A DNA stretch of 64,000 nt from assembly GCF_029227855.1 (NCBI RefSeq), contig NZ_CP074356.1, one strand, 5' to 3'. Shown here in pieces: positions 5,911 to 53,671 of the stretch; position 1 is the stretch's first letter, and every line of letters starts with the position of its first letter. This DNA is from Escherichia coli. GTDB taxonomy: Bacteria > Pseudomonadota > Gammaproteobacteria > Enterobacterales > Enterobacteriaceae. The notes beneath the pieces are model-generated. The model was not told the origin of the DNA and ran no database searches. It was given only the letters and a program-made list of their open reading frames with translations. The translations under genes and the position numbers were made by a program.

Positions 5911-7050
5911 ATGAGCGCGGGAAGCCCAAAATTCACCGTTCGCCGCATTGCGGCTTTGTCACTGGTTTCGCTATGGCTGGCAGGCTGTTCTGACACTTCA
6001 AATCCACCGGCCCCGGTCAGCTCCGTTAATGGCAATGCGCCTGCAAATACCAATTCTGGTATGTTGATTACGCCGCCGCCGAAAATGGGGACGACGTCTA
6101 CAGCTCAGCAACCGCAAATTCAGCCGGTACAGCAGCCACAAATTCAGGCAACTCAACAACCGCAAATCCAGCCGGTGCAGCCAGTAGCTCAGCAGCCGGT
6201 ACAGATGGAAAACGGACGCATCGTCTATAACCGTCAGTATGGGAACATTCCGAAAGGCAGTTATAGCGGCAGTACCTATACCGTGAAAAAAGGCGACACA
6301 CTTTTCTATATCGCCTGGATTACTGGCAACGATTTCCGTGACCTTGCTCAGCGCAACAATATTCAGGCACCATACGCGCTGAACGTTGGTCAGACCTTGC
6401 AGGTGGGTAATGCTTCCGGTACGCCAATCACTGGCGGAAATGCCATTACCCAGGCCGACGCAGCAGAGCAAGGAGTTGTGATCAAGCCTGCACAAAATTC
6501 CACCGTTGCTGTTGCGTCGCAACCGACAATTACGTATTCTGAGTCTTCGGGTGAACAGAGTGCTAACAAAATGTTGCCGAACAACAAGCCAACTGCGACC
6601 ACGGTCACAGCGCCTGTAACGGTACCAACAGCAAGCACAACCGAGCCGACTGTCAGCAGTACATCAACCAGTACGCCTATCTCCACCTGGCGCTGGCCGA
6701 CTGAGGGCAAAGTGATCGAAACCTTTGGCGCTTCTGAGGGGGGCAACAAGGGGATTGATATCGCAGGCAGCAAAGGACAGGCAATTATCGCGACCGCAGA
6801 TGGCCGCGTTGTTTATGCCGGTAACGCGCTGCGCGGCTACGGTAATCTGATTATCATCAAACATAATGATGATTACCTGAGTGCCTACGCCCATAACGAC
6901 ACAATGCTGGTCCGGGAACAACAAGAAGTGAAGGCGGGGCAAAAAATAGCAACCATGGGTAGCACCGGAACCAGTTCAACACGCTTGCATTTTGAAATTC
7001 GTTACAAGGGGAAATCCGTAAACCCGCTGCGTTATTTGCCGCAGCGATAA
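5911..7050 (+). CDS. nlpD: Murein hydrolase activator lipoprotein NlpD (LysM plus LytM/M23 domains)
   Basis: Track ORF 379 aa; lipobox LAGCS; Q/P-rich repeat; C-terminal M23-like domain; lies directly upstream of rpoS. Confidence 0.95.
6106..6203 (+). repeat. Imperfect tandem ~27-bp coding repeats inside nlpD, encoding QQPQIQPVQ-type units
   Basis: Repeated cagcaaccgcaaattcagccggtacag-like units visible in the sequence. Confidence 0.7.
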
Positions 7051-7112: not shown

Positions 7113-8105
7113 ATGAGTCAGAATACGCTGAAAGTTCATGATTTAAATGAAGATGCGGAATTTGATGAGAACGGAGTTGAGGTTTTTGACGAAAAGGCCT
7201 TAGTAGAAGAGGAACCCAGTGATAACGATTTGGCCGAAGAGGAACTGTTATCGCAGGGAGCCACACAGCGTGTGCTGGACGCGACTCAGCTTTACCTTGG
7301 TGAGATTGGTTATTCACCACTGTTAACGGCCGAAGAAGAAGTTTATTTTGCGCGTCGCGCACTGCGTGGAGATGTTGCCTCCCGCCGCCGGATGATCGAG
7401 AGTAACTTGCGTCTGGTGGTAAAAATTGCCCGCCGTTATGGCAATCGTGGTCTGGCGTTGCTGGACCTGATCGAAGAGGGCAACCTGGGGCTGATCCGCG
7501 CGGTAGAGAAGTTTGACCCGGAACGTGGTTTCCGCTTCTCAACATACGCAACCTGGTGGATTCGCCAGACGATCGAACGGGCGATTATGAACCAAACCCG
7601 TACTATTCGTTTGCCTATTCACATCGTAAAGGAGCTGAACGTTTACCTGCGAACCGCACGCGAGTTGTCCCATAAACTGGACCACGAACCAAGTGCGGAA
7701 GAGATCGCAGAGCAACTGGATAAGCCAGTTGATGACGTCAGCCGTATGCTTCGTCTTAACGAGCGCATTACCTCGGTAGACACCCCGCTGGGTGGTGATT
7801 CCGAAAAAGCGTTGCTGGACATCCTGGCCGATGAAAAAGAGAACGGTCCGGAAGATACCACGCAAGATGACGATATGAAGCAGAGCATCGTCAAATGGCT
7901 GTTCGAGCTGAACGCCAAACAGCGTGAAGTACTGGCACGTCGATTCGGTTTGCTGGGGTACGAAGCGGCAACACTGGAAGATGTAGGTCGTGAAATTGGC
8001 CTCACCCGTGAACGTGTTCGCCAGATTCAGGTTGAAGGCCTGCGCCGTTTGCGCGAAATCCTGCAAACGCAGGGGCTGAATATCGAAGCGCTGTTCCGCG
8101 AGTAA
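7113..8105 (+). CDS. rpoS: RNA polymerase sigma factor RpoS (sigma-38)
   Basis: Track ORF 7077..8105; start set to the ATG encoding [21 protein letters not shown], giving 330 aa; sigma-70 family regions present. Confidence 0.95.
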
Positions 8106-8122
8106 GTAAGCATCTGTCAGAA

Positions 8123-8152
8123 AGGCCAGTCTCAAGCGAGGCTGGCCTTTTT
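8123..8152 (+). terminator. Rho-independent terminator of rpoS
   Basis: Hairpin aggccag...ctggcct followed by TTTTT, 18 nt after the rpoS stop. Confidence 0.8.
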
Positions 8153-8154
8153 GT

Positions 8155-8865
8155 TGTGCACAGAAAACCCCCAGCTAGGCTGGGGGTTCCGGAAAGCTTT
8201 CAGCTTTAAGCCAGTTATTAAAACCCCTTTTGATTTGTTAAAACACCTTGCGGTCTGGCAACTGCAAGTGTCAAACAAGAAATCAAAAGGGGGTCCCAAT
8301 GGGGAACGAAAAGAGCTTAGCGCACACCCGATGGAACTGTAAATATCACATAGTTTTTGCGCCAAAATACCGAAGACAGGTGTTCTACAGAGAGAAGCGT
8401 AGAGCAATAGGCAGTATTTTGAGAAAGCTGTGTGAGTGGAAAAGTGTACGGATTCTGGAAGCTGAATGCTGTGCAGATCATATCCATATGCTTGTGGAGA
8501 TCCCGCCCAAAATGAGCGTATCCGGCTTTATGGGATATCTGAAAGGGAAAAGCAGTCTGATGCTTTACGAGCAGTTTGGTGATTTGAAATTCAAATACAG
8601 GAACAGGGAGTTCTGGTGCAGAGGGTACTACGTCGATACGGTGGGTAAGAACACGGCGAAGATACAGGATTACATAAAGCACCAGCTTGAAGAGGATAAA
8701 ATGGGAGAGCAGTTATCGATTCCCTATCCGGGCAGCCCGTTTACGGGCCGTAAGTAACGAAGTTGGATGCAAATGTCAGATCGTGTGCGCCTGTTAGGGC
8801 GCGGCTGGTAAGAGAGCCTTATAGGCGCATTTGAAAAACCTCCGGCTATGCCGGAGGATATTTAT
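8155..8865 (+). mobile_element. IS200-family insertion sequence (IS200/IS605 family); boundaries approximate
   Basis: Intact 152-aa Y1 HUH transposase with the HxH motif; hairpin at the left end (8166..8188); imperfect stem-loop around the RBS (8226..8290); hairpin at the right end (8839..8857); overall size about 0.7 kb as expected for IS200. Confidence 0.8.
8299..8757 (+). CDS. tnpA: IS200/IS605-family transposase TnpA (Y1 HUH)
   Basis: Track ORF 8248..8757 trimmed to the ATG preceded by an AAAAGGGGG Shine-Dalgarno; product 152 aa, MGNEKSLAHTRWNCKYHIVFAPKYRR...HIHMLVEIPPK, typical IS200 TnpA. Confidence 0.9.
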   Translation: MGNEKSLAHTRWNCKYHIVFAPKYRRQVFYREKRRAIGSILRKLCEWKSVRILEAECCADHIHMLVEIPPKMSVSGFMGYLKGKSSLMLYEQFGDLKFKYRNREFWCRGYYVDTVGKNTAKIQDYIKHQLEEDKMGEQLSIPYPGSPFTGRK

Positions 8866-8897
8866 TTCTTTTGGTTGGGGAGCCGGTGTGTTTGTGG

Positions 8898-8930
8898 GCT
8901 GGATAAGCCGCGATAGCGTCTCATCCGGCA
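8898..8930. repeat. REP-like palindromic element
   Basis: gctggataagccgcgatagcgtctcatccggca resembles REP units (ggataagc...catccggc inverted arms). Confidence 0.5.
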
Positions 8931-8939
8931 ATTTGCACC

Positions 8940-9347
8940 CTATGTGTTCATCATCTTGCGCACTAGCTGCATAAACAGCTCCTGCTCTTCTCCACTCAAA
9001 CGCCCCAAAAATTCCTCATCCACGCTGTCACCTATCGGTATCGCCGCAGCAAGTATCTTTTCGCCTTCGGCAGTCAGCCAGACAAAGCGTCGCCGCTTGT
9101 CAGCGGCGTCATGTTCACGTCTGACTAAGCCACGATTTTCCATTCTTGCCAACATTTCTGCCAGCGTTGCTTTGGTGCTGACGGCTGCTTCTATCAGTGC
9201 CACCTGTTCGATACCAGGCTTATCAGCAATGGCGCGCATCACCGCGTACTGTGGTTTGGTCAGGTCAGGTAACTCGTGCTGCCAGCGGGCCGTGTGTTGC
9301 TGAAAAAGCTGTCGTAACTGATGGAACGCTTTATTTCGTAACGCCAT
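8940..9347 (-). CDS. hosA: MarR/SlyA-family transcriptional regulator (HosA-like)
   Basis: Track ORF 135 aa with a winged-helix MarR fold signature; divergent from the UbiX/UbiD-type operon. Confidence 0.8.
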   Translation of the reverse strand: MALRNKAFHQLRQLFQQHTARWQHELPDLTKPQYAVMRAIADKPGIEQVALIEAAVSTKATLAEMLARMENRGLVRREHDAADKRRRFVWLTAEGEKILAAAIPIGDSVDEEFLGRLSGEEQELFMQLVRKMMNT

Positions 9348-9462
9348 GTAAACTCCGGGCTAATTCTCTGTCGCTATCATAGCGGTTTTTCAGTGACGAA
9401 GAAGATGTTGTTACTTTTCAATCCTTGCCGCTGTGGAAATGAAGGAGTATGTTAATAATAAC

Positions 9463-9476
9463 GTTCGTATACGAAC
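9463..9476. promoter_or_regulatory. Perfect 14-bp palindrome GTTCGTATACGAAC in the hosA/ecdB divergent region; candidate MarR-type operator
   Basis: Exact inverted repeat read in the sequence, 18 nt upstream of the ecdB ATG. Confidence 0.5.
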
Positions 9477-9493
9477 AATTAAGAGAGTAAGCA

Positions 9494-10087
9494 ATGAAAC
9501 TGATCGTCGGGATGACAGGGGCTACCGGTGCGCCTCTTGGTGTGGCATTACTGCAAGCGCTGCGGGAGATGCCGAATGTCGAGACTCATCTGGTGATGTC
9601 GAAGTGGGCGAAAACCACTATTGAACTGGAAACGCCTTACAGCGCTCGCGATGTTGCCGCCCTCGCAGACTTCAGCCATAACCCGGCGGATCAGGCGGCG
9701 ACCATCTCCTCAGGTTCCTTTCGTACCGACGGCATGATCGTTATTCCGTGCAGTATGAAAACGCTCGCCGGTATCCGTGCCGGTTACGCCGATGGCCTGG
9801 TAGGGCGCGCGGCGGACGTCGTGCTCAAAGAAGGCCGCAAACTAGTGCTGGTGCCGCGTGAAATGCCGCTTAGCACCATCCATCTCGAAAATATGCTCGC
9901 ACTTTCACGCATGGGCGTGGCGATGGTGCCGCCGATGCCTGCCTTTTATAACCATCCCGAAACGGTAGATGACATTGTCCACCACGTGGTAGCCCGCGTG
10001 CTGGATCAATTTGGCCTCGAACATCCCCACGCCAGGCGCTGGCAAGAATTGCCGCAGGTCCGGAATTTTTCTCAGGAGAATGAATAA
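9494..10087 (+). CDS. ecdB: UbiX-type flavin prenyltransferase, B subunit of a non-oxidative hydroxyarylic acid decarboxylase
   Basis: Track ORF 197 aa; N-terminal MKLIVGMTGATGAPLG flavoprotein motif (UbiX/Pad1 family). Confidence 0.85.
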   Translation: MKLIVGMTGATGAPLGVALLQALREMPNVETHLVMSKWAKTTIELETPYSARDVAALADFSHNPADQAATISSGSFRTDGMIVIPCSMKTLAGIRAGYADGLVGRAADVVLKEGRKLVLVPREMPLSTIHLENMLALSRMGVAMVPPMPAFYNHPETVDDIVHHVVARVLDQFGLEHPHARRWQELPQVRNFSQENE

Positions 10088-11514
10088 TGGCATTTGATAA
10101 TTTACGCAGCTTTTTACAGGCGCTTGATGACCACGGCCAGTTACTGAAAATCAGCGAAGAGGTGAACGCGGAACCGGATCTGGCAGCAGCAGCTAACGCC
10201 ACCGGGCGTATCGGCGACGGCGCGCCCGCGCTGTGGTTTGACAATATTCGCGGCTTTACCGATGCCCGTGTGGCGATGAATACCATCGGTTCCTGGCAGA
10301 ACCACGCGATTTCCCTCGGCCTGCCGCCAAACACCCCGGTCAAAAAGCAGATTGATGAGTTTATCCGCCGCTGGGATAACTTCCCCATTGCCCCGGAGCG
10401 CCGCGCCAATCCAGCCTGGGCGCAGAACACCGTCGATGGCGACGAGATCAACCTGTTCGATATCCTGCCGCTGTTTCGTTTAAACGATGGCGATGGCGGT
10501 TTCTATCTCGACAAAGCGTGCGTGGTTTCCCGCGATCCGCTCGACCCGGATAACTTCGGCAAGCAGAACGTCGGTATCTATCGTATGGAAGTGAAGGGCA
10601 AACGTAAGCTCGGCCTGCAACCGGTGCCGATGCACGATATCGCCCTGCATCTGCATAAAGCGGAAGAACGCGGTGAAGATCTGCCGATTGCCATCACCTT
10701 GGGTAACGATCCGATCATCACGCTGATGGGGGCCACGCCGCTGAAATATGATCAGTCCGAGTATGAAATGGCAGGCGCGCTGCGCGAAAGCCCGTACCCG
10801 ATCGCCACCGCCCCGCTGACCGGTTTTGATGTGCCGTGGGGCTCGGAAGTGATCCTCGAAGGGGTCATCGAAAGCCGTAAACGCGAAATCGAAGGGCCGT
10901 TCGGTGAGTTTACCGGGCACTACTCCGGCGGGCGTAACATGACCGTGGTGCGTATCGATAAAGTCTCTTACCGCACCAGGCCGATTTTCGAATCGCTGTA
11001 CCTCGGCATGCCGTGGACAGAAATCGACTACCTGATGGGGCCAGCCACCTGCGTGCCGCTGTATCAGCAACTGAAAGCCGAGTTCCCGGAAGTGCAGGCG
11101 GTGAACGCCATGTACACCCACGGCCTGCTGGCGATTATCTCCACCAAAAAACGCTACGGTGGCTTTGCCCGCGCGGTGGGCCTGCGTGCGATGACCACGC
11201 CACACGGTCTGGGCTACGTGAAGATGGTGATTATGGTCGATGAAGACGTTGATCCGTTCAACCTGCCGCAGGTGATGTGGGCGCTCTCTTCGAAAGTGAA
11301 CCCGGCAGGGGATTTGGTGCAGTTGCCGAATATGTCCGTGCTGGAACTCGACCCTGGCTCAAGCCCGGCCGGTATCACCGACAAGCTGATTATCGACGCC
11401 ACCACGCCTGTCGCCCCGGACAACCGTGGTCACTACAGCCAGCCGGTGGTGGATTTACCGGAAACCAAAGCCTGGGCTGAAAAACTGACCGCTATGCTGG
11501 CCGCACGTAAATAA
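10087..11514 (+). CDS. ecdC: UbiD-family decarboxylase, C subunit
   Basis: Track ORF 475 aa; UbiD family; start overlaps the ecdB stop (ATAATGG). Confidence 0.85.
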   Translation: MAFDNLRSFLQALDDHGQLLKISEEVNAEPDLAAAANATGRIGDGAPALWFDNIRGFTDARVAMNTIGSWQNHAISLGLPPNTPVKKQIDEFIRRWDNFPIAPERRANPAWAQNTVDGDEINLFDILPLFRLNDGDGGFYLDKACVVSRDPLDPDNFGKQNVGIYRMEVKGKRKLGLQPVPMHDIALHLHKAEERGEDLPIAITLGNDPIITLMGATPLKYDQSEYEMAGALRESPYPIATAPLTGFDVPWGSEVILEGVIESRKREIEGPFGEFTGHYSGGRNMTVVRIDKVSYRTRPIFESLYLGMPWTEIDYLMGPATCVPLYQQLKAEFPEVQAVNAMYTHGLLAIISTKKRYGGFARAVGLRAMTTPHGLGYVKMVIMVDEDVDPFNLPQVMWALSSKVNPAGDLVQLPNMSVLELDPGSSPAGITDKLIIDATTPVAPDNRGHYSQPVVDLPETKAWAEKLTAMLAARK

Positions 11515-11524
11515 GGAGAACAAG

Positions 11525-11761
11525 ATGATTTGTCCACGTTGTGCCGATGAACAGATTGAAGTGATGGCGAAATCGCCGGTAAAAGATGTCTGGACGGTCT
11601 ACCAGTGCCAGCATTGCCTCTATACCTGGCGCGATACCGAACCGCTACGCCGCACCAGCCGCGAACATTACCCGGAAGCGTTTCGTATGACGCAGAAAGA
11701 CATTGATGACGCGCCAATGGTGCCGAGCATTCCGCCGCTGCTGGCGGAAGGTAAGCGCTAA
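11525..11761 (+). CDS. ecdD: Small zinc-ribbon subunit (D) of the decarboxylase
   Basis: Track ORF 78 aa with CPRC...CQHC; third gene of the three-gene operon. Confidence 0.75.
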   Translation: MICPRCADEQIEVMAKSPVKDVWTVYQCQHCLYTWRDTEPLRRTSREHYPEAFRMTQKDIDDAPMVPSIPPLLAEGKR

Positions 11762-11766
11762 ATAAA

Positions 11767-11792
11767 AGGTCCGATGCCCATCGGACCTTTTT
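11767..11792. terminator. Bidirectional rho-independent terminator between convergent ecdD and ygbN
   Basis: aggtccgatg-ccc-atcggacct hairpin flanked by an A-run and a T-run. Confidence 0.75.
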
Positions 11793-11799
11793 ATTAAGG

Positions 11800-13164
11800 T
11801 CAAATTACCGCCCATACGCACCAGGTAATTAAGAATCCGGTAAAACCGAGAATGGTCGTTAACACTGTCCAGGTTTTCAGACCGTCTGCTACCGACAACC
11901 CCAGATATTTGGTCACAATCCAGAACCCTGAGTCATTAATATGTGACGCGCCAAGCCCACCAAAGCAGGCTGCCAGCGTCACCAATACGCACTGAATCGG
12001 ATTCAATCCCATCACCGCTTCTGAGAGTAACCCGCCGGTTGTCAGGATTGCTACGGTTGCTGACCCCTGCGATGCACGCAGCGCCAGTGAAATAATAAAT
12101 GCGGCTGGTAACAGAGGCAGGTCAATCATTTGTAGCATGTTGGCAAGGGCTTTGCCGACGCCCGATTCCACCAGCACTTTGCCAAATACCCCTCCAGCAC
12201 CAGTAACCAAAATCACTACCGCCGCGGTGGGAAGGGCTGAGCCCATAATGTCGCTGGTGTGTTGTAAGCTCCAGCCGCGACGTAAAGCCAATAACCAGAA
12301 TGCCAGCACCAGCGCAATCATTAGAGCTACCATTGGTGAGCCGATCAGCTGTAGCGTACCAAGCAGGGGATGCGAAGGCGGCATCAGTGTTGCGGAAACC
12401 GTACCCGCCATGATAATCGCGATAGGAATAACAATTAGCGAGGTGACCAGCGCGACGCCCGGTGGATTTATTTTATCGCTTAATTTTGTCGCGCCTTCCT
12501 CACTGGCCGGAGCCAGTTGCATCTGTTCCAGTACTTCCACCGACATCGCATATTGGCACTTATTGATTATTTTCGCTGCAAAGTAGCCAACAATCCCTAC
12601 GGGAATAGAAATCGCAATACCGATGATGGTTAGCCAGCCGATGTCTGCGTGGAGTAACCCCGCTGCGGCGACAGGGCCTGGATGCGGCGGTACCGCCACA
12701 TGAACAGTTAGCATGATTCCAGCGACAGGCAGGCCAAATTTGAGTGGCGATATTTTGGCAACCTTGGCAAAACCGTAAATGATTGGCGCAAGAATAATAA
12801 AGCCGACATCAAAGAAGACGGGAATACCGAGGAAGAACGCTGCCAGAGTCAGCGCAGCGATAGTTCGTTTGTCACCTAACTTGCGACTGAAATAATTAGC
12901 CAGTGACTCTGCACCACCAGAGTGTTCGATCATACGCCCCAGCATAGCGCCCAGACCAATAATAATAGTGACGGAACCAAGCACACCGCCCATCCCGGCG
13001 ATCATCACTTTACCCACTTCGCCCGCCGGTATACCCGCCGCAAGTGCGACTAACAGGCTGACGAGGAGCAGAGCAACGAATGGTTGTACCTTTGCCTTGA
13101 TGACCAGCAGCAACAGCATGATTACGCCAGTTAACGCAATGCATAACAATGTAATTGTGGACAT
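11800..13164 (-). CDS. ygbN: GntP-family permease YgbN
   Basis: Track ORF 454 aa, polytopic membrane protein of the GntP family. Confidence 0.9.
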   Translation of the reverse strand: MSTITLLCIALTGVIMLLLLVIKAKVQPFVALLLVSLLVALAAGIPAGEVGKVMIAGMGGVLGSVTIIIGLGAMLGRMIEHSGGAESLANYFSRKLGDKRTIAALTLAAFFLGIPVFFDVGFIILAPIIYGFAKVAKISPLKFGLPVAGIMLTVHVAVPPHPGPVAAAGLLHADIGWLTIIGIAISIPVGIVGYFAAKIINKCQYAMSVEVLEQMQLAPASEEGATKLSDKINPPGVALVTSLIVIPIAIIMAGTVSATLMPPSHPLLGTLQLIGSPMVALMIALVLAFWLLALRRGWSLQHTSDIMGSALPTAAVVILVTGAGGVFGKVLVESGVGKALANMLQMIDLPLLPAAFIISLALRASQGSATVAILTTGGLLSEAVMGLNPIQCVLVTLAACFGGLGASHINDSGFWIVTKYLGLSVADGLKTWTVLTTILGFTGFLITWCVWAVI

Positions 13165-41968: not shown

Positions 41969-42120
41969 AAATCTTACAGAACTGTTCTGGTATCAAAGGA
42001 ATTCCCGGAAATATTCGTAGAATACGAAGCGGGCAGTATCGCCGACCTGTGACTGCCGGATGCGACGCGCTCGTGTCCGGCTGGGCGGGTTACGCAATTC
42101 ATGATGGCGGGAATAACTCA

Positions 42121-52133: not shown

Positions 52134-53671
<1,538 letters not shown>

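Follow-up and report, generated by a model that had tools for sequence, protein, structure and literature searches.

Gene order from nlpD to ygbN

The window, by which we mean the whole stretch of 64,000 nucleotides of Escherichia coli DNA that was analysed, carries in the region from nlpD to ygbN the gene rpoS with its intrinsic terminator, an IS200C element, a REP (palindromic unit), hosA and the genes ecdB, ecdC and ecdD (Table 1). The last three are non-oxidative hydroxyarylic acid decarboxylase genes and form the remainder of the hosA accessory module. This gene content is that of pattern IV among the o454-nlpD (mutS-rpoS) patterns I-IV of Ewers et al. 2014 (PMC4209514), for which the order ygbN/o454, kpdDCB, slyA/hosA and rpoS was described, hosA being named slyA in that description. 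The same paper reported an IS200 insertion between o454 and rpoS in one strain. The window differs from the published patterns in having IS200C between rpoS and hosA, and the REP is unmentioned there.

Compared with K-12, the hosA-ecdBCD module sits between the terminators of rpoS and ygbN. Its right edge lies directly after the ecdD stop codon (11762), at the ygbN terminator or at pphB, the latter arrangement, with ecdD and then pphB, being that of O157-like genomes. A K-12 query aligns from AATAAAAGG onward in the module-bearing genomes.

Table 1. Features of the window in the region from nlpD to ygbN
Feature	Position	Strand	Remarks
nlpD	5911-7050	+	
rpoS CDS	7113-8105	+	ORF end 8105; 100%-identical RefSeq region annotated rpoS, 993 bp
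rpoS intrinsic terminator	8121-8152	+	GC stem 8124-8147, T-run 8148-8152; -31.6 kcal/mol, z = -7.1
IS200C	8153-8867	+	715 bp relative to the empty site (alignment with L002); RefSeq IS200C tnpA; NCBIfam transpos_IS200 E=1.9e-43
IS200 left-end RNA region, STnc490/art200 family	8166-8289	+	Rfam RF01405, 146 bits, E=3.5e-31; part of the IS
tnpA of IS200C, 152 aa	8299-8757	+	
IS200C right-end hairpin, CCTCCGGC-TAT-GCCGGAGG	8839-8857	.	terminator-like on both strands; TTTTT follows on the minus strand
Spacer	8868-8893	.	26 nt from the terminator/IS200 junction to the REP; leftmost sequence of the hosA module; highly polymorphic between alleles
REP / palindromic unit	8894-8930	+	head GTGG 8894-8897, 5' arm 8898-8911, loop GATA 8912-8915, 3' arm 8916-8929, A 8930
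hosA, MarR/SlyA-family regulator, 135 aa	8940-9347	-	stop TAG 8942-8940; ORF, RefSeq MarR-family annotation, NCBIfam MarR-family matches
ecdB/ecdC/ecdD (= kpdBCD, VdcBCD)	9494-11761	+	NCBIfam VdcB, VdcC and VdcD above cut-offs; RefSeq annotation
Module right junction and ygbN terminator, AAAAGGTCCGATGCCCATCGGACCTTTTT	11762-11799	.	K-12-shared sequence from here on
ygbN	11800-13164	-	

The core of IS200C runs from GTGCACAG to ATTTATT (8156-8866), and because of the adjoining T-runs its boundary is ambiguous by up to 3 nt. The anatomy of IS200 has been described (PMC4513863); the STnc490/art200 match corresponds to the Hfq-binding antisense RNA region of the IS200 left end and indicates an intact IS200 regulatory region.

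Several related genomes differ from the window in or around rpoS. Strain JNEC-KY178 (L001) is 100% identical to the window over 7900-9500 and carries an IS1A between nlpD and rpoS (L001 1461-2158), which is absent from the window and would separate rpoS from its upstream promoter region. The rpoS gene is annotated as frameshifted in ATCC 25922 (L005 9116-9107 region) and in the O111:H8 strain 8E (L008), and that of strain 2017-02-2CC (L006) has an altered 3' end and a length of 999 bp.

The palindromic unit beside hosA

A REP-like palindrome at 8898-8930, between the IS200 element and hosA, had been noticed in a first-pass annotation of the window, and both its sequence and its position were confirmed. 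These nucleotides read GCTGGATAAGCCGC-GATA-GCGTCTCATCCGGC-A with GTGG directly on the 5' side, the two arms having 14 nt each. The unit is extragenic: it is overlapped by no annotated gene and is bordered by the hosA stop codon (8940) on one side and by the IS200/rpoS terminator on the other. The head tetranucleotide, which is GTGG in the window, is GTAG (O111:H8 type) or GTCG in other alleles.

Folded as a single hairpin, the window REP reached -17.6 kcal/mol on the plus strand and -18.4 kcal/mol on the minus strand, with z-scores of only -1.6 and -2.7, for which reason the fold alone is weak evidence for a REP. Three positions of the 14-pair stem are non-Watson-Crick, and the unit folded more weakly (-16 to -17 kcal/mol) than canonical REPs (-21 to -23 kcal/mol). 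A REP-shaped pattern matched once in the window against 0.00 matches expected from shuffles. No second palindromic unit was found in 8868-8939, whereas a BIME comprises at least two alternating units with linkers; the element is a solitary REP unit and not a BIME cluster.

Family membership was examined with an nhmmer profile built from seven alleles of the hosA-side REP, each from different genomes. As reference for the K-12 REPs we used the known malE-malF intergenic region, the RefSeq K-12 record being without REP features. The profile matched the intergenic REPs of K-12 at malE-malF (E=1.1e-7), at the pgi 3' end (2e-5) and at lamB-malM (2.8e-5), as well as those at yjbT-psiE, ubiA-plsB and alr-tyrB, and at least eight intergenic matches fell within one 50-kb K-12 locus. 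This retrieval of classical K-12 REPs by a profile of the alleles is decisive for membership in the family. With a related REP as query, the median number of places found per genome was 4 (E<=10). Aligned with the K-12 REPs, the unit has in common with them GT(A/G)G-GCC(G/T)GATAAG(A/G/C)CG...CG(C/T)CGCATC(C/A)GGCA, including the characteristic internal mismatch of the family. In Rfam, a sub-threshold match to naRNA4, which is derived from REP325, covers 8897-8963 on the minus strand (27 bits, E=0.049). Judged by its sequence, the palindrome is an ordinary member, if a slightly degenerate one, of the enterobacterial family of REPs (palindromic units). This family of E. coli and relatives was reportedly described by Stern and by Gilson in 1984.

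Elsewhere in the window, two more partial or degenerate REP-like matches were seen, one at 42054-42083 (minus strand), which keeps only its 3' arm well, and one at 52321-52333.

Block junctions, IS200 insertions and possible allelic exchange

The locus was compared across 5,426 complete E. coli genomes, and four classes were distinguished. In the reference arrangement (2,384 genomes) rpoS and hosA are contiguous with full coverage across the REP. Genomes of the K-12 type (1,942), in which ygbN directly follows rpoS, diverge from it after CCTTTT of the rpoS terminator, and those of the B2 type ("pattern III", with flavodoxin and MBL-fold genes; 1,042 genomes) diverge after CTTTTGGT, 9 nt beyond the K-12-type point. 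Only 16 of the 5,426 genomes have, like the window, IS200C between rpoS and hosA, with the insertion at the terminator T-run. Shared sequence gives way to unshared sequence at the T-run of the rpoS terminator, behind CTTTTGGT, directly past the ecdD stop codon and in the ygbN 3' end, and no gene-content junction was found inside the REP in these 5,426 genomes. The head of the REP starts 26 nt inside the hosA-ecdBCD module, of which the REP is the outermost (rpoS-proximal) element. The place where the gene blocks are joined is not the REP but the T-run 26 bp to its left, in the rpoS intrinsic terminator. The REP is present wherever hosA adjoins rpoS, with the exception of one rare variant (L006 type, strain 2017-02-2CC), in which an unrelated 1-kb segment stands in place of the stretch that begins with CTTTTG, includes the REP and ends with the last three hosA codons.

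These results bear on the earlier proposal that the REP marks the junction at which different versions of the rpoS-mutS interval were assembled. As far as gene content is concerned, the proposal is not supported, the breakpoints mapping elsewhere, namely to the rpoS terminator T-run and to the position after the ecdD stop codon. A recombination site that joins the alternative accessory blocks of the interval might well be expected where the REP lies, at the outer end of the hosA module with the left boundary 26 nt away; the L006 variant does swap out the REP-containing stretch, and in the B2-type block, too, the stop codon of the first gene is directly followed by a decayed REP-like unit (L005 9242-9281). 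However, left breakpoints at the rpoS terminator in 1,942 K-12-type and 1,042 B2-type genomes and a right breakpoint after the ecdD stop codon largely refute such a role for gene content, the sequences to the left of the hosA REP and of the B2 unit are unrelated, and descent of both units from a shared ancestral copy is not demonstrated. We therefore regard block joining by the REP as improbable.

The right flank of the B2 unit resembles that of some hosA alleles, 10/13 nt after the REP being matched. Where the B2 block is missing from a genome, the B2 unit with its flank matches the ypfG-tktB REP best and not the hosA REP. Because the ypfG-tktB REP carries the same flank, GGCAATCAGCATCC, the resemblance is explained by the REP subfamily, of which the flank GGCAATCA.CAT is a feature. 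Orthology of the hosA REP and the B2 unit was considered and rejected as unproven, the ypfG-tktB REP being the better match. Between the 3' ends of hosA and of the flavodoxin gene no homology was found.

The positions of the IS200 copies were equally informative. Relative to the empty site GGCTGGCCTTTTT/CTTTTGG (slashes denote junctions), the 715 extra bases of the window begin right after the T-run of the rpoS terminator. Two further loci, each with a hosA allele different from that of the window, carry IS200-family copies at the same terminator: in L013 the copy follows CCTTTTT and encodes a different transposase protein, and in L014 it follows CCTTTTTCTT. A fourth copy, the IS200C of L003, has the ygbN terminator with its T-run (CCTTTTTATT) directly in front of it. 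At all four junctions compared, TT at the base of the terminator hairpin precedes the IS200 left end GTGCACAG. At least four independent IS200 insertions are thus found at terminator T-runs, three at rpoS and one at ygbN, and 0 in the REP. An association of IS1541 with terminators was reportedly observed by Odaert et al. in 1998.

The window copy (8147-8156, 8860-8875) has 3-4 extra nt (GTT...T) compared with the empty site, which do not occur at the junctions of L013, L014 and L003.

The first-pass annotation had also referred to REPs as hot-spots of IS insertion. IS1397, ISKpn1 and IS621 are IS elements that target REPs. ISPpu9 in Pseudomonas putida (PMC8450116) is another example of an IS family with this preference, and the IS200 TnpA is homologous to REP-associated tyrosine transposases (NCBIfam REP_Tyr_transpos, E=8.5e-8, below cut-off). 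Attraction of IS200C by the REP is nevertheless refuted at this locus and hardly conceivable here: IS200C is separated from the REP by 26 nt and adjoins the T-run of the rpoS terminator, at which the copies of L013 and L014 also stand, and the copy of L003 directly follows the T-run at ygbN. No IS end was found within the REP, which is intact at every IS200-bearing locus examined, and other rpoS-hosA insertions are possible in at most 3 of the approximately 2,400 hosA-bearing genomes (19 two-place records, 16 of them with IS200).

The K-12-type junction (L004 3006-3013, MG1655) reads CCTTTT/CTGTGCAC/AATAAAAGG and is identical in 1,942/1,942 genomes. Its 8 unique nt, CTGTGCAC, contain GTGCAC(A), the 6-7 nt with which the IS200 left end begins (compare 8156-8163 of the window), at the position which IS200 occupies in L013, L014 and the window; the chance of a match to a fixed 6-mer is about 2e-4. 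From this likeness, the K-12 arrangement may carry an IS200 remnant, and a deletion from inside the IS200 left end through the REP, hosA and ecdBCD is a possible origin of it.

On a finer scale, the REP was compared among 17 alleles. Its core occurs in three types, A (the window, L002, L011 and L017), B (O157/O145 and the L009-like group) and O (O111:H8 type), which are uncoupled from the types of the flanking spacers. For L011/L017 compared with L007/L020, the left spacer has 1/31 differing positions, the REP 9/37 and the right spacer 1/9, corresponding to Fisher p = 0.022 for the REP versus the spacers and 1.7e-6 for the REP versus the rest of the region, the pairs having been chosen after inspection and the p-values being uncorrected. 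A reverse pattern was seen for L007 and L009, with 2/37 differences in the REP and 9/41 in the spacers. The B-type core together with its right spacer (GGATAAGAC.CGTCAGCGTC...GGCAATCAGCATCC) has almost the same sequence as the ypfG-tktB REP with its flank.

These three observations would be accounted for if the REP core of approximately 37 nt were a cassette swapped independently of its spacers, by short-tract allelic recombination or by ectopic conversion from other REPs. We put this forward as a tentative possibility, the 17 sequences coming from few lineages and the pairs having been picked post hoc. Moreover, the whole interval is a known recombination mosaic (PMC4209514) in which junctions are expected everywhere, and the right spacer of L007 is no clean mosaic of the other types. 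The sequence comparison thus weakly suggests short conversion tracts bounded by the REP, as a lead and not as a result. Slightly more doubtful is the specific version in which the core and the 11-nt B-type extension would be exchanged as a unit, or converted from, e.g., the ypfG-tktB REP, the REP borders then being preferred micro-junctions. Such micro-junctions at the REP edges are the part of the original junction proposal that may stand, on thin evidence. An exchangeable cassette is compatible with an ordinary REP, which is the best explanation of the palindrome. If true across the full population, the reshuffling of REP cores would be a small concrete case of REP-bounded micro-recombination.

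The hosA 3' end and related systems

On the minus strand, the hosA stop codon is followed by a gap of 10 nt (8939-8930), after which the stem starts at 8929, and this spacing is constant in 17/17 alleles inspected. According to a review (PMC12306157), REPs stabilise upstream mRNA, and those with a stop codon less than 16 nt away were reported to reduce the translation of the gene upstream (Liang et al. 2015); the gap at hosA falls within the corresponding range, i.e. a stem at most 15 nt after the stop codon. Assuming that transcription proceeds through it, the REP would be transcribed on the minus strand within the hosA 3' untranslated region. Its stem-loop may then act as an RNA hairpin that blocks 3'-to-5' exonucleases, as is usual for REPs, and, being within 15 nt of the stop codon, may impede the terminating ribosome and thereby lower the output of HosA. 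By analogy with other REPs we infer an effect on hosA mRNA stability or on translation termination. A REP at this position might tune the expression of hosA, whose product regulates motility and the neighbouring decarboxylase operon.

An intrinsic (Rho-independent) hosA terminator, rather than a REP, could also take the form of a GC-rich hairpin at this distance (10 nt) from the stop codon. Such an identity of the palindrome is very unlikely, since the minus-strand sequence behind the hairpin (CCCACAAACACACC) contains no T-run. The palindrome was moreover absent from the terminator scan and belongs by sequence to the REP family. Reading on from hosA past the REP, the nearest terminator-like site in this strain is the IS200 right-end hairpin (8857-8839), which is followed by TTTTT; in strains with an empty site, the rpoS terminator read in reverse takes this place.

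The two strands of the REP differ in their pairing. Across nine alleles, 84.9% of the stem cells are paired on the hosA-sense strand versus 76.2% on the other, and B-type alleles fold with about -21.5 kcal/mol on the hosA-sense strand versus -10 to -13 kcal/mol on the other. All four transition polymorphisms of the stem (4/4) are G-U compatible on the hosA-sense strand. The asymmetry comes from four sites (p ~0.06), and no significant covariation of the stem was found on either strand, the observed value being reached by 324/500 shuffles. These comparisons of alleles give a hint, not a significant one, of constraint at the RNA level on the hosA-sense strand. The stretch from the rpoS terminator to the hosA stop codon, including the REP, is the most polymorphic part of the locus, which argues against a strong constraint on the REP.

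One outgroup scan with the conserved hosA 3' end found only a single, E. coli-like contig that is labelled as a Citrobacter MAG. Over the approximately 670 nt compared (rpoS 3' end to hosA), this contig (L016, DXKH01000072.1, binned as Citrobacter sp. MAG) is identical to the L009-type E. coli allele, and its gene order is rpoS-hosA-ecdBCD-pphB-mutS. It is probably misbinned E. coli DNA.

We consider it likely, with a probability of roughly three in four, that the palindrome is an ordinary REP which lies at the rpoS-proximal end of the hosA-ecdBCD module and forms a 3'-UTR hairpin of the hosA mRNA, and that it is not the junction of IS200C or of the gene blocks. As one more REP copy in a well-studied polymorphic region, it mainly leads to a correction of the map: in the rpoS-mutS interval, gene-block junctions and repeated IS200 insertions use terminator T-runs and not the REP.

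The hosA REP shares with the REP/PU family (reviewed in PMC12306157) the imperfect palindrome of approximately 35 nt, the consensus arms, the internal mismatch GATAAG/CATC, the head of GT(A/G)G type and the extragenic location just 3' of a gene, between convergent genes. It differs in the head GTGG of the window allele, in a weaker stem and in being a single unit instead of a BIME array. The REPs of malE-malF, which stabilise mRNA as 3' elements (Newbury et al. 1987, cited in PMC12306157), are closely related in sequence and likewise located in the 3' region of a transcript, but they are intercistronic and paired, whereas the REP of hosA is terminal and single. To the stop-proximal REPs of Liang, Rudd and Deutscher 2015, as summarised in that review (PMC12306157), the likeness is one of position alone (10 nt). 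As with the REP-targeting ISPpu9 (PMC8450116), an IS adjoins a REP at hosA; in contrast to that element, IS200C lies outside the REP, its left end adjoining the T-run of a terminator at a distance of 26 nt, as in the other independent insertions at T-runs.
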